The notes under the pieces are model-generated. The model was not told the DNA's origin and did no database searches. It saw only the letters and a list, made by a program, of their open reading frames with translations. The position numbers and the translations under genes were made by a program. Positions 5,434-33,545 of a stretch of DNA of 64,000 nucleotides are shown here, one piece after another (position 1 is the stretch's first letter; each line of letters begins with the position of its first letter). Source of the DNA: an uncultured Oscillospiraceae bacterium (GTDB taxonomy: Bacteria > Bacillota > Clostridia > Oscillospirales > Oscillospiraceae); contig CANPYX010000004.1 of the NCBI GenBank assembly GCA_947588955.1, forward strand, positions 6,421-70,420, written 5' to 3'.

Positions 5434-7069
5434 GACGAAGGGCTTTAATCTCGCCAAGGCGCTGGGCAGCGTGTCCAAATCGGACACCGAGCGGATCGAG
5501 CGCATAGACATCGACCGGCTGGGCGACGACCCGAAAAATTTCTACTCCCTCTCGGACCTGGACTCCCTCGCGGAGAACATCGAGCTGGTGGGGCTCCAGC
5601 AGCCGTTGCGGGTCCGCCCCGACAGGGAGGCGCACGGGTATTACATAATCGTCTCAGGTCACCGGTGCCGGGCGGCGATCCAAAAGCTTGTGGACGACGG
5701 CAGGGAGGACCTGCGGCAGATCCCCTGCATCGTGGAGCAGCCGGCAGAGTCCGAGGCTATGCAGGAGCTTCGGCTCATCTTCGCCAATTCCGGCACCCGT
5801 AAGCTCACGGACCCGGAGATCGCCGCCCAAGCGGACAGGGTGCAGGAGCTCCTATACAGGCTCAAGGAGGAGGGCTACGATTTCCCCGGACGTATGCGGG
5901 ACCATGTGGCGGAGGCGTGCCAGGTGAGCCGGTCGAAGCTTGCGCGGCTAAAAGTTATCGAAATGGGCCTGCGTGGAGAACTGCACCAGCGGTGGCAGGA
6001 GGGCAAAATCAATGAGTCTGCCGCGTATGCCTTGGCGAGGATGCCGGAGGATATTCAACACCGTATCCTCACCGCCTGCCGCGGCAAGGTCCCGGACGGC
6101 AACACGCTGGAGCGGGTGGTCAAAGCCTATGATGGCGGTATGCGGTGGGGGACCGATGGCGGGCTTACATGCCCTGACGGGAAAGCCTGCACTTACGCCA
6201 ACGGTTTCCTCCGGACTTTCATTGATTCCCCCTGGCGAGAGTGTGACGGGTCCCGGTGCTGTATCACCTGCCGCTATGGACCTCGCGGAGATTACAACTC
6301 CTGCGACCGGATGTGCTCAAAAGCAAAGGCTGTCCGAAAAGACATGATAAAAAAGGAAAGGTCCAAAGAGAAGCGCGCGCAGGAAAAACGGACAACCGCG
6401 GCGCAGCGGGGCACAGTCCCCAACGCCCGCAGGGTCCTGAGAGCCATAGACGCGGCGGGGCTCGCGGATGATGTACGGATACCGTGGGTGTATAGCAATC
6501 AGTTTCCGGTGTCGGTCATTCGCAAGTGGGCGGACGGCGACTTTTCCGAGGGCTGGTACGATCATTACATATCTCCTCTTCTCGGCGTGGAATCCCTTAG
6601 CCGTGCGCTTGATGCGGCAAAGCTCCTCAAGTGCTCCGCCGACTATCTGCTGGGGCTCACCGATGAGCTCCACCCGGTCGGCGCGCCGACGGGGTATGTC
6701 ACGGACCGGGACCCGGACGGACCGACTGAGGCGATGGTGCTGATGGATTTCCATCTCAACAGACCTTACCGCACCACGGCGGAGTGGGACGGGCAGGCGT
6801 GGCTGTCCGGCGGACAAGTCCTGCCAGACATGGTGCTTGGCTGGTACCCGATCCCAAAGACACCGGACATACCGGAGGAGCCGGAGGAAACGGACTCCGA
6901 TGTCCCTGAAGACATCAACGATTACGGCTTGTGCTCCACCGGATTTTCTCCCACCGGTGCGTGCGGCGCCGCGGCAGCCTGCGGCGAGATATATAACTGC
7001 TGCTCCCAATGTGATGCGGACTGCAATACCAGATGCGGGTGGATCCCCGAGGAGGAAAAACATGAGTAA
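5426..7069 (+). CDS. parB: ParB/Srx-domain protein with long Cys-rich C-terminal extension
   Basis: ParB N-domain motifs GLQQPLRVRP and IIVSGHRCRAA. Overlaps the parA stop. C-terminal half has an XRE-like ADYLLGLTDE segment and Cys clusters. Confidence 0.8.
   Translation: MAETKGFNLAKALGSVSKSDTERIERIDIDRLGDDPKNFYSLSDLDSLAENIELVGLQQPLRVRPDREAHGYYIIVSGHRCRAAIQKLVDDGREDLRQIPCIVEQPAESEAMQELRLIFANSGTRKLTDPEIAAQADRVQELLYRLKEEGYDFPGRMRDHVAEACQVSRSKLARLKVIEMGLRGELHQRWQEGKINESAAYALARMPEDIQHRILTACRGKVPDGNTLERVVKAYDGGMRWGTDGGLTCPDGKACTYANGFLRTFIDSPWRECDGSRCCITCRYGPRGDYNSCDRMCSKAKAVRKDMIKKERSKEKRAQEKRTTAAQRGTVPNARRVLRAIDAAGLADDVRIPWVYSNQFPVSVIRKWADGDFSEGWYDHYISPLLGVESLSRALDAAKLLKCSADYLLGLTDELHPVGAPTGYVTDRDPDGPTEAMVLMDFHLNRPYRTTAEWDGQAWLSGGQVLPDMVLGWYPIPKTPDIPEEPEETDSDVPEDINDYGLCSTGFSPTGACGAAAACGEIYNCCSQCDADCNTRCGWIPEEEKHE
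5471..5487. repeat. 17-bp palindrome family, degenerate copy GTGTCCAAATCGGACAC
   Basis: Read directly. Lies 45 nt into parB, in frame as VSKSDT. Confidence 0.85.
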
Positions 7070-7412
7070 TAGCATCCCTGAAAATGAGCGCGCATTTATG
7101 TCCGCGGAGCTCGGCAAGCTGCTGCGGGAACAGGAGACCACCGTCTCGGTGACCCTGCCCGGCGGCTCCCTTGAGCCGGTAATAAGGACGAATATGCTCG
7201 ACAGTGACATCCGGACGCTCCTTATGCCGGTCGTCATGTCCATTGGCTTAAAGACAGCGTTCGTCGATATGTTCCCGCTTTTAGCGCCCGAATCGATACA
7301 CGGAAGCATTGATGAATACACGGAGATCATCCGCCAGGATTTGCATAACGCAAGTGACAGGTATCTCGCCGAGGCGGGGAAGAAGGAGGCGGACGATGGA
7401 AAGACTGACTGA
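7062..7412 (+). CDS. hypothetical phage protein
   Basis: ATG at 7062 with GGAGGAAAAAC upstream; overlaps the parB stop. Confidence 0.45.
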   Translation: MSNSIPENERAFMSAELGKLLREQETTVSVTLPGGSLEPVIRTNMLDSDIRTLLMPVVMSIGLKTAFVDMFPLLAPESIHGSIDEYTEIIRQDLHNASDRYLAEAGKKEADDGKTD

Positions 7413-7608
7413 ACGGAGCTGGAGGGAGATGTCTCCGGATGAGTGCGGGGCGCGCCTTTGCAGGTGCCGGTCGGCGGACATCTGCGCCGGATGCCGTGTG
7501 CCCAGGCTGTACGCCAGGCTCGCGGTCTATGAGGACTCAGGTCTGGATCCCGACGCCCTGCGCGTCCTCAGTCCGGCGAAGGTGAAACGGAGGAGGGCTC
7601 GGAGATGA
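7396..7608 (+). CDS. hypothetical small Cys-containing phage protein
   Basis: ATG at 7396 after GAAGGAGG. CxCx5CxxC cluster. Confidence 0.4.
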   Translation: MERLTERSWREMSPDECGARLCRCRSADICAGCRVPRLYARLAVYEDSGLDPDALRVLSPAKVKRRRARR

Positions 7609-7862
7609 AGATCAAGATAACCGGCGGCAGAGCCGGCTGTTCAGCGCGCGGGAGTGCTGATTCGGATGAGCTTCTTTACGCGATTGAGCTTTTGGTCCGT
7701 GTCTTCGCCACGTCCGCCCGTCAGATAGGAGCACAGGAGGATGTTATCTTTGCCGCCTGTTGCTCCGCGGCTGCGAACGGATTTGCCGAAAACCCCACCG
7801 CAACCGGCTCGTTTGTGCTCACCGACCTGAGCAAGATGGGAGGGACAGGGAATGAAAAATGA
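7605..7862 (+). CDS. hypothetical phage protein
   Basis: ATGA overlap with the upstream gene. Confidence 0.4.
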   Translation: MKIKITGGRAGCSARGSADSDELLYAIELLVRVFATSARQIGAQEDVIFAACCSAAANGFAENPTATGSFVLTDLSKMGGTGNEK

Positions 7863-8283
7863 AGAGGCTTTGAGGGTCATCGAGACAAAGCTGGCGTGCT
7901 TGAGCCGGGACCTTGAGCTCTGCTCCCTGGACACCTGCAAAACCTGCGATTATTTCGTCGGCCGTGATCTCAAAGAGGCTCTCCAAGTGGCCGCGAAGGT
8001 TTTGCGGGAGGTTGTAGATGCGGAATTACCGGAAAAAGACAGCTTTGAGTATGTGAGGAATGTTCGGGTGAGTAAGCAGCTCGCATGGCACTTAAAGCCT
8101 TATCGGGGTTGCCCGCGGGGATCTATGGGTCCATCCGGCAGCACATCCGCCGTTGAGATTCTGCGCAACGCAAAGCAGTATGTTATTGCCGGACGTGACG
8201 ATAGGTTTGTCTGCATCCCTGAATGGGATTATGCGGCGTGCCTGAAGGCGCTGGAGAATGGGCAGGAGGCGGCGGAGAAATGA
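7852..8283 (+). CDS. hypothetical phage protein
   Basis: ORF overlapping its neighbours in operon fashion. Confidence 0.5.
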   Translation: MKNEEALRVIETKLACLSRDLELCSLDTCKTCDYFVGRDLKEALQVAAKVLREVVDAELPEKDSFEYVRNVRVSKQLAWHLKPYRGCPRGSMGPSGSTSAVEILRNAKQYVIAGRDDRFVCIPEWDYAACLKALENGQEAAEK

Positions 8284-32771: not shown

Positions 32772-32788
32772 GTGTCCGAATCGGACAC
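32772..32788. repeat. 17-bp palindrome GTGTCCGAATCGGACAC (perfect)
   Basis: Read directly. Intergenic cassette. Confidence 0.9.
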
Positions 32789-32843
32789 GGAAATACCCCC
32801 ACCCCTTTTTGGGCGGTGGAGGAGCGCGGAGCGGTGAAGGACT

Positions 32844-33506
32844 ATGGGTATAACTGTAAAGCTTGATCTGGTCACCGACAGGGAGGCGAGACATGTATAC
32901 CGGGTCGACGCTCTGCGGCGCGCCGGCTGGGAGGCAATGACCGCCGCCGAAAGGCTGGAGTGGTGGCACGGGCTGTCGGACGAATATGTTTACTGGCGGG
33001 AGGGGACGCCGGTCACCTGCCTTGACGGTGTGATCGTGTTCATCGCCACAGGGGACATAAACAAGGGCGCCTACAACTACAAGGATTGGAACCGGGTGGA
33101 GGGCACCGCGGAGTACCTGGCGGGGATCCTGCGCGGGCTGCCGGAGCTTTTGCGCGAGCACGCGAGGGAGCACGGCGTGGCGTGGGATACGGCGCTGGAT
33201 GTGCCGTATGATCCGGAGGACTTCCGGCTTACGGTGAAGACGGACTGGGCGATGGAGGACATCCCCACGCCCGGACAGCTGGATAGGTACCTGGAGAACG
33301 TGAGGAGGCTCAGAGGGGCGCTGGAGTACGAGACGGAGGAGCTGCCGGCGACCATGGCGGTGCTCACCTACGCCGGCGCCAACGCCATCGAGAGGGCGCT
33401 TTTGGGGCTGGGCTTCGCCATCGAGGACTTCCACACCTGGCGGGACGTGGAGAACATTGAAAAGAGCTGCGTTTATTCAGACGACGTCTTTTCGGGGGAG
33501 GTCTGA
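32844..33506 (+). CDS. hypothetical fibre-module protein
   Basis: KGAYNYKDWNRVEGTAEYLAGIL-type motif, seen (from memory) in Firmicutes phage fibre-associated proteins. Confidence 0.5.
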   Translation: MGITVKLDLVTDREARHVYRVDALRRAGWEAMTAAERLEWWHGLSDEYVYWREGTPVTCLDGVIVFIATGDINKGAYNYKDWNRVEGTAEYLAGILRGLPELLREHAREHGVAWDTALDVPYDPEDFRLTVKTDWAMEDIPTPGQLDRYLENVRRLRGALEYETEELPATMAVLTYAGANAIERALLGLGFAIEDFHTWRDVENIEKSCVYSDDVFSGEV

Positions 33507-33528
33507 ATACCCCCCACCTCTTTCGCGC

Positions 33529-33545
33529 GTGTCCGATTCGGACAC
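33529..33545. repeat. 17-bp palindrome GTGTCCGATTCGGACAC (perfect)
   Basis: Read directly. Intergenic cassette. Confidence 0.9.

Follow-up and report, generated by a model that had tools for sequence, protein, structure and literature searches.

Copies of a 17-bp palindrome, GTGTCCGAWTCGGACAC, are dispersed through a siphovirus-type prophage of an uncultured Oscillospiraceae bacterium, and on sequence evidence we consider it probable, at roughly 0.6, that they are parS-type cognate sites of the ParB-like protein encoded by the same phage at 5426–7069. The prophage extends from the left edge to ~36.77 kb of the window, by which we mean the whole 64,000-nt stretch that was analysed (contig CANPYX010000004.1, positions 6,421 to 70,420). 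The sites are non-random, vary symmetrically, are conserved across an entire family and are linked to genes for ParA and the ParB-like protein in phages as well as on plasmids. Judged by sequence comparison, the pairing of protein and site recurs in hundreds of related gut phages. An earlier sequence-only reading of this DNA had offered a dispersed parS-like site or the operator of a dimeric regulator; the comparative evidence, which ties the ParA/ParB-like pair to the palindrome family, supports the parS-like option.

Palindromic sites in the prophage

Six exact copies of the palindrome are present in the window, at 10396, 12945, 17492, 27135, 32772 and 33529, and none occurred in 100 dinucleotide-preserving shuffles. 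A mismatch-tolerant search adds two degenerate copies, at 5471 (one mismatch) and 17456 (two mismatches), which reproduces the count of six plus two given by the sequence-only reading. The eight sites are spread across 28 kb of the window at spacings of 0.04–9.6 kb, and every copy lies within the prophage, a placement that by itself has p ~0.012. The motif had also been described as restricted to the prophage and, for the window, this is correct: host DNA starts at ~36.77 kb and has no palindromic copy. A generic repetitive extragenic palindromic (REP) element of the host, raised earlier as the outcome that would count against a phage-specific site, is thus at odds with the absence of copies from the 27 kb of host DNA in the window. 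A three-mismatch match at 37469, in host DNA, fails the palindromic-site filter and is likely due to chance. Another three-mismatch match, at 26646–26662 (GTGTTCAATTTGGACAC), is still palindromic with 7/8 arm pairs and reads VFNLDT in frame; it is weak as a true site and could be a chance match.

The first site (5471–5487, GTGTCCAAATCGGACAC) occupies codons 16–21 of the ParB-like gene, where it encodes VSKSDT. The second (10396–10412) encodes the C-terminal tail, VSDSDT, of a small open reading frame (ORF; 10135–10431) and lies 270 nt upstream of the HUH Rep-like gene. Site 3 (12945–12961) is intergenic, 12 nt past the terS stop and 89 nt ahead of the terL start; in relatives, a site recurs in or beside terS, or ~1.1 kb past the Rep-like gene. 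Sites 4 (17456–17472, GTGTCCAAACCGGACAC, VSKPDT) and 5 (17492–17508, VSESDT) are both found in the C-terminal tail of the ClpP protease, the latter 71 nt ahead of the major capsid gene, and form a tandem pair with 36-nt spacing; tandem pairs in other phages are spaced by 37–39 nt. Site 6 (27135–27151) follows a terminator-like C-rich element and precedes the collagen-repeat fibre gene. The last two are intergenic: site 7 (32772–32788) is located 5 nt past the stop of ORF 32461–32766 and 55 nt ahead of the ORF that begins at 32844, and site 8 (33529–33545) 22 nt past the stop of ORF 32844–33506 and 50 nt ahead of the ORF that begins at 33596. These positions confirm the placements first proposed, namely 45 nt into the ParB-like gene, after terS, twice in the protease tail and three times between tail-fibre genes.

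All copies inside ORFs had further been claimed to share one reading frame (V-S-x-x-D-T). This applies to the four coding copies VSKSDT, VSDSDT, VSKPDT and VSESDT, but the copy at 27135 has to be removed from the set. Within ORF 25656–27353, the GC content of third codon positions (GC3) collapses after ~27100, and another frame has a TAG stop just upstream of 27135; for these reasons we read this site as probably intergenic. The ORF appears over-extended; near its end, this tail gene may contain a sequencing error, a frameshift or a programmed shift. The gene that follows has two candidate starts, at 27198 and 27241.

The three palindromes of the fibre region also have ~50 nt of similar downstream sequence in common (repeat family D4). 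C-rich elements (ATACCCCCCCACC...CTTT) are found in intergenic gaps at 20292, 27113, 32791, 33498, 33549 and 34980, several of which adjoin palindromes; one makes a minus-strand, terminator-like hairpin (33572–33553).

Conservation of the motif and its association with ParA and ParB-like genes

The exact 17-mer is not confined to the studied prophage but is widespread among mobile elements of gut Clostridia. A scan of the IMG/VR viral collection returned at least 120 stretches with highly varied flanking contexts and GC content. The contexts comprise short gaps between a stop codon and a ribosome-binding site, in-frame acidic protein tails, longer terminator-like hairpins and tandem pairs 37–39 nt apart. 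A scan of one genome per species (596 Gb) returned at least 118 stretches; the matches listed belong mostly to Oscillospiraceae, Lachnospiraceae and Selenomonadaceae, together with scattered single matches in unrelated high-GC phyla that, by our own estimate, are roughly at chance level for 596 Gb. From 250 sites with unique context we derived the family consensus GTGYCCRA-N-TYGGRCAC; as the candidate target DNA of the ParB-like protein, the palindrome is also written GTGTCCGAATCGGACAC. Symmetric variants follow lineages (GTGCCCGAWTCGGGCAC, GTGTCCAASTTGGACAC, GTGTCCAAWTTGGACAC and GTGTCCGCWGCGGACAC). A crude classing of sites in high-GC loci by ORF frame was dropped, as spurious long ORFs made it unreliable.

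When all window proteins were compared by tblastn with the 120 motif-selected viral stretches listed, ParA (27), the ParB-like protein (23) and the Rep-like protein (22) were the commonest neighbours, and the 118 motif-selected genome stretches listed gave 25, 25 and 18, respectively. A hidden Markov model (HMM) of the ParB-like family matched ~24% of the motif-selected pieces of ~8 kb (among matches listed), a rate consistent with nearly every ~35-kb phage having one ParB-like copy. For the Rep-like family, alignment A2 proved too divergent for a collection scan and the closer set A3 was used instead.

The association also holds in reverse. In 80 viral loci picked solely by ParB-like homology (1.2 Mb), a search for palindromic sites with up to four mismatches found 177 family sites, compared with one after shuffling, and at least one site was present in 74 of the 80 loci. 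In 51/80, the ParB-like gene has a site no more than ~50 nt from its start, and this placement explains why the family has a conserved N-terminal peptide, V[SP]x[LS][DG]T. ParA accompanies the ParB-like protein in 73/81 loci. The related phage L397, which encodes a tyrosine integrase and a CI-type repressor, has a centromere-like triple site array with a 37-bp period 0.7 kb downstream of its ParB-like gene. A cultured relative is the Flavonifractor phage Cormatin, which has the gene order of the window prophage and four sites, one of them inside its ParB-like gene. Cormatin resides as an inducible prophage in the chromosome of F. plautii YL31 (PMC10197239), a strain that belongs to the OMM12 model community.

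Since ParA, the ParB-like protein, DnaB and the HUH Rep-like protein form one conserved phage backbone, phages alone cannot tell which of them reads the site, whereas plasmids can. The N-terminal and helix-turn-helix part of the ParB-like protein has 32–34% identical homologues on 76 plasmids, mostly of the Clostridium perfringens pCP13 family, with P. sordellii pCS1 also present. The only window proteins with homologues on pCP13 or pCS1-5 are ParA and the ParB-like protein, a homologous pair that is annotated there as a partition system; an HMM of the Rep-like family had no match on pCP13 and pCS1-5 at E<=1. Plasmid pCP13 (NC_003042.1; 54.3 kb, 25.5% GC) has seven perfect GTGTCCCC-S-GGGGACAC palindromes with the outer arms of the phage motif (also written GTGTCCCCGGGGGACAC). 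They are dispersed, at 1701, 3516, 18492, 37854, 45174, 45228 and 49934, and two further copies are degenerate. All of the palindromes are intergenic, one within the 58-nt gap between parA and parB, and most are flanked by A-runs and T-runs, like bidirectional terminators. In the 21.6 kb of pCS1-5 that we examined there are three such sites, two of which flank parAB. The sole published parS proposal for pCP13-family plasmids is a different, unvalidated 117-bp 'putative parS', and a mini-replicon with parAB and this element was unstable (PMC4459074). We regard the GTGTCCCC-S-GGGGACAC palindromes as candidates for the true ParB sites of the pCP13 and pCS1 toxin plasmids. A more distant ParB of a Lactococcus plasmid, with homology in the N-terminal domain only, served as an outgroup: that plasmid does not use this palindrome as its ParB site and has tandem ~47-bp repeats downstream of parB, a classical centromere.

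The ParB-like protein and its proposed function

The putative reader of the palindromes is a protein of 547 aa encoded on the plus strand (5426–7069; Pfam ParB_N, 2.9e-6; phrog_27290 and phrog_4715), with more than 4800 homologues. An AlphaFold2 (AF2) model built on 23 homologues reached a predicted local distance difference test (pLDDT) score of 78.7. In Foldseek searches, residues ~25–240 matched Noc (7nfu, template-modelling (TM) score 0.73), Caulobacter ParB-parS (6t1f, 0.70) and KorB (8qa9, 0.57), matches that cover both the N-terminal domain with CTPase fold and the helix-turn-helix. The protein is therefore predicted to combine a ParB/Noc/KorB-type N-terminal domain with a helix-turn-helix, the latter being among the most conserved segments of the family. 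The arginine box (GxxRxxA type) reads SGHRCRAA. Past the helix-turn-helix follow a Cys-rich segment, a long helix and a C-terminal domain, and Pfam gave no match for the C-terminal segments.

The start of the ParB-like gene is overlapped by the 3' end of the gene for a ParA-type Walker ATPase (4657–5433, plus strand; 258 aa, KGGVAKT; Pfam AAA_31 at 4.4e-38, CbiA; phrog_164, ParA-like partition protein, at 4.5e-57). This ParA scores under the NCBIfam ParA_partition cut-off and is 32–34% identical to the ParA of pCP13 and pCS1.

By analogy to ParB, Noc, KorB and BisD, we infer how the protein could bind and act. A dimer would read two GTGYCCRA half-sites via its helix-turn-helix, close as a nucleotide-dependent clamp and spread from these entry sites, so that eight sites at spacings of 0.04–9.6 kb could mark the entire ~30-kb phage genome. 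The adjacent ParA may then act on the complex to position or segregate non-integrated copies. Complexes at gene boundaries might also modulate transcription, a dual logic like that of KorB/IncC.

There is evidence on both sides as to whether partition or genome-wide regulation is the output. Partition is favoured by the adjacent ParA in 73/81 loci, by the annotation of the plasmid pair and by the triple array beside the ParB-like gene of L397. A regulatory or genome-marking role is favoured by the position of sites at gene boundaries in both phages and plasmids, by large extra C-terminal domains as in BisD and by the existence of ParA-less lineages. A bolder possibility, which we put forward tentatively and regard as somewhat unlikely, is that a large and so far undescribed subfamily of ParB-fold clamps in elements of gut Clostridia coats the whole element through many 17-bp entry sites and serves mainly for element-wide control, not partition. 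Some lineages could then do without ParA, and constraint on the site would be strong enough for it to be written into protein linkers, including the N-terminus of the ParB-like protein itself. Such control would mean silencing, insulation, timing of lytic or transfer genes, or marking of 'self' DNA. The carriers would be integrative siphophages and the pCP13/pCS1 toxin plasmids, and possibly integrative and conjugative elements (ICEs).

Evidence that does not fit

Several observations weigh against the assignment of the palindromes to the ParB-like protein, which is based on co-occurrence and homology. The protein scores 30.9 bits with TIGR00180, under the NCBIfam ParB threshold of 58.45, and has ANSGTR at what we take to be the place of the canonical ParB motif ENLQR. 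The canonical ParA-binding motif, (L/F/I)G(K/R)G(L/F/I) (PMC12704722), was not found in it; its N-terminus, MAETKGFNLAKAL (KGFNLAKAL; family consensus KKGFDLA), is similar to the motif yet does not fit its definition. Nearest-neighbour co-variation with site class did not discriminate between the candidate proteins either, with 62% for the ParB-like protein, 59% for Rep, 72% for ParA, 46% for DnaB and 56% for XRE. A relation between helix-turn-helix sequence and site class (SAPKL with CCAA, S[KR]SKL with CCGA) was suggestive but has many exceptions, and we did not use it as evidence.

Protein and site are also found apart. Some phages with a ParB-like gene have few or no recognisable sites, and five mosaic phages without ParAB (L343, L374, L376, L368 and L386) retain perfect ones. 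The first four are 88–93% identical to the ParAB-positive locus L366 over the aligned regions, and sites in such phages could be recent relics or be served in trans. An ICE-like region of Anthropogastromicrobium aceti (contig NZ_JAOQJH010000006.1, 80–104 kb) has 13 exact and three one-mismatch sites in 17 kb. It encodes a MobL relaxase, ArdC, TnpV, a serine recombinase and a 2340-aa helicase/methylase-like protein, and no ParB-like gene was found in the 24 kb readable. Several unrelated ORFs of this region end in ...EEEELER just ahead of a site, as though a longer repeat unit joined the gene ends.

Five ParA-less lineages retain the ParB-like protein together with its sites. In these, the gene between DnaB and the ParB-like gene encodes a small Cys-rich protein of ~175 aa (MGRIKAPAGCGGC...) in place of ParA. 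Finally, the need for a centromere is not obvious, as the prophage is integrated in the chromosome and a relative encodes an integrase.

Alternative explanations

That the palindromes are instead operators or 'stoperators' of another phage regulator, for instance an XRE/CI-type repressor that silences lytic genes in the lysogen like gp71 of mycobacteriophage L5, seems improbable to us. A palindrome would suit a dimeric helix-turn-helix protein, the window encodes XRE-type regulators, several sites sit in short gaps between stop codon and ribosome-binding site, and two sites of L397 lie within its lysogeny module. However, XRE homologues occur near the motif in 7 loci, compared with 23–27 for ParA and the ParB-like protein (among matches listed), and pCP13 and pCS1 have the palindrome family but no homologue of any window regulator. 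Immunity repressors and their operators diverge fast, whereas here phages that differ greatly in GC content share the identical 17-mer. Stoperators are asymmetric, oriented and bound by the immunity repressor (PMC4351075); the sites described here are symmetric and their central base is without strand bias. Quite unlikely, too, is a factor of the host, common to Clostridia, or one supplied in trans by other resident elements, whose site is exploited by mobile elements. This would account for an identical 17-mer shared by phages, mosaic phages that lack ParAB and an ICE-like element in which no ParB-like gene is visible, with hosts that include Oscillospiraceae, Lachnospiraceae and Selenomonadaceae. 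Yet the site variants follow element lineages rather than hosts, the host DNA of the window has no copy, and the ICE and the mosaic phages were sampled in part only. To our knowledge, the motif is unlike the operators of LexA, CcpA, CodY, Spo0A and TnrA, chromosomal parS and the Noc site.

The sequence-only reading had also considered an RNA hairpin. In our analysis, a role as RNA or single-strand DNA hairpin, whether in termination, in processing or stability, or in translation, is decidedly improbable. The RNA fold is stable (-9.2 kcal/mol), flanking A-runs and T-runs extend the palindrome to a terminator-like structure in ~20 viral loci and most pCP13 copies, and many copies lie 4–30 nt upstream of a ribosome-binding site. 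Symmetric variation is expected for a DNA site and an RNA hairpin alike, so the mixed sites are more telling: in one third of the 250 unique-context sites the two half-sites differ, and on the coding strand these hybrids contain 42 G·U-compatible and 41 A·C-type pairs. As G·U is not preferred over A·C, pairing does not appear to be under selection on either strand, which disfavours the hairpin. Nor is a strand bias clear for the central base (A 70, T 51, G 13, C 13). In the window, the sites precede A-runs, not T-runs; a terminator scan found no consistent terminator at the sites (0/8 called), and an Rfam scan returned the tRNA as its sole match and nothing at the palindromes. A hairpin also leaves the in-frame coding copies and the link to the ParB-like protein unexplained. 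Because the RNA folds, and because copies elsewhere often form part of terminator-like hairpins, transcripts are likely to be affected, but as a side effect and not as the conserved function. We consider it very improbable indeed that the palindromes belong to the HUH Rep-like endonuclease, as its recognition hairpins or mobile repeats, comparable to REP/RAYT systems or rolling-circle origins. HUH-like (HHH) and Tyr motifs are present in the Rep-like protein (10666–11412), which is found near the motif in 22 loci (among matches listed), a frequency similar to that of the ParB-like protein, and whose gene often has a site just up- or downstream. In contrast, the pCP13 and pCS1 palindromes occur without a Rep-like homologue (HMM E<=1), and four loci with Rep but no ParB-like gene (L329, L333, L379 and L380) have no sites. 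The single, variable central base leaves no conserved loop for nicking, and eight origins per genome are implausible. From general knowledge, we set aside a cos or pac site, as eight copies would cut the genome, and also a replication origin, invertase or shufflon sites, a CRISPR-repeat mimic, a GANTC methylation target and a sequencing adapter.

Relation to known systems

If the palindromes are sites of the ParB-like protein, KorB/IncC of RK2 offers the closest working model. Both systems have a ParB-family protein beside a ParA, and odd-length palindromes are scattered around the replicon, with eight sites in the window, four in Cormatin and seven in pCP13. The KorB operator OB is 13 bp long and is present in 12 copies on RK2. 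By comparison, the site described here has 17 bp, a different sequence and copies in coding sequence as well, and the two proteins share ~17% identity in a structural alignment. The replicon here is an integrated prophage, and sigma-70-like promoters do not accompany the sites: a promoter scan at the window sites found none adjacent, except for a weak one 79 nt past 27135. No KorA-like partner was identified in the prophage, for which no systematic search was made. KorB acts in both partition and long-range regulation (PMC12704722).

Soj/Spo0J-parS and Noc provide the top structural matches, and the window ParA is small and Soj-like. The 16-bp parS is found within genes, including spo0J itself, and Noc sites are dispersed. 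The differences are the TIGR00180 score under the cut-off, ~300 extra C-terminal residues, a 17-bp site with a central base and a phage-borne location. N15, named as a precedent by the sequence-only reading, is a linear plasmid prophage that needs partition and has SopAB with four dispersed centromere sites among phage genes. Like the window prophage, it is temperate and combines a pair of ParA/ParB type with palindromes among its phage genes, but it fits poorly in lifestyle. Since the prophage studied here abuts tRNA-Ser in its host's chromosome and the relative L397 has a gene for a tyrosine integrase, we do not regard it as an N15-like plasmid prophage; the proteins are unrelated beyond the superfamily.

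At the level of fold, the protein resembles BisD of ICEclc, which is also ParB-like, is encoded by an integrated mobile element and has an extra domain that ParB lacks. From parS-like sites, at which it is loaded, this CTP clamp spreads across tens of kb, and it controls promoters of the element (PMC12409273). It differs in having two loading sites instead of many dispersed ones and in requiring BisC. Cluster O mycobacteriophages have a 17-bp dyad-symmetric repeat, TGTTCGGNNNCCGAACA, in more than 30 copies per genome that is unexplained (PMC4351075). As in our prophage, these repeats are dispersed between and inside siphophage genes without orientation bias, and a protein with a ParB-like domain is encoded, although the two are not linked in that work. 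The repeat has another sequence, the hosts belong to another phylum, and those phages are without a parAB pair or an integrase.

Pairs of ParB and parS are already known, and so are dispersed sites (RK2, N15) and regulators of integrated elements that are ParB-like (BisD). We found no description of this ParB-like subfamily, of its 17-bp site, of the conservation of the site within the ParB-like coding sequence or of its presence on pCP13 and pCS1, and a literature search for the phage 17-mer and the pCP13 palindromes found no paper giving either sequence. Prophage-borne ParB-fold proteins are listed as largely uncharacterised in a recent survey (PMC12704722). Binding by the ParB-like protein would define the cis element of a ParB subfamily with thousands of members in phages of the human and animal gut. 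For two toxin plasmids, pCP13 of C. perfringens and pCS1 of P. sordellii, it would also point to what may be their real centromere or set of operators, and it would raise the testable question of why an integrating phage has a ParA/ParB pair and up to eight loading sites. As the site is short, exact and easily mutated, experimental tests are straightforward.

Other features of the prophage

The prophage encodes, in order, an XRE regulator, an HTH_36 replication protein, DnaB, ParA, the ParB-like protein and the HUH Rep-like protein, followed by HNH, terS, terL, portal, ClpP protease, HK97-type capsid, tape measure, collagen-repeat fibre and amidase. The host part begins with tRNA-Ser (36773–36864), followed by MetRS and further host genes. 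When the structural region was compared with the GenBank phage collection at near-identity, no match was found.

A second repeat family of ~45 nt is found at 10597–10641, 11622–11666 and 15536–15580, as AAAAGAAAAAATCGTGAGAGGCGAGAGACCTGAAGTCCACAGCCC and two copies that are 73–78% identical to it. Each repeat lies directly upstream of a gene start (Rep-like, HNH and portal, respectively), and the family may be a common leader or regulatory element.

Triple-helix repeats of collagen type (Pfam Collagen, 1.1e-15) occur in the fibre protein 27241–28896, as do the alanine-rich repeat families D5/D6. In the tail-fibre region 28829–34973, the genes 28829–29989 and 33975–34973 have long runs of Cys-x3 repeats with a 12-nt period (families D1/D3/D8) and common segments that are 74–84% identical. 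A gene for a radical-SAM/SPASM enzyme (30838–32274) lies amid these genes, and its position beside the Cys-x3 repeat genes suggests that the Cys-rich fibre proteins are cross-linked enzymatically. A 26% identical radical-SAM homologue is encoded in the A. aceti ICE-like region. The same region of the prophage contains two convergent sigma-70 promoters of perfect consensus (TTGACA-17-TATAAT), at 30029–30057 on the plus and 30456–30428 on the minus strand, within 31-nt inverted repeats. Between them lies a hairpin with a 13-bp stem (30317–30349), called as a terminator on both strands, and another terminator is found at 30462–30489. Altogether, 30028–30490 looks like a small inserted expression cassette, or moron, among the fibre genes.

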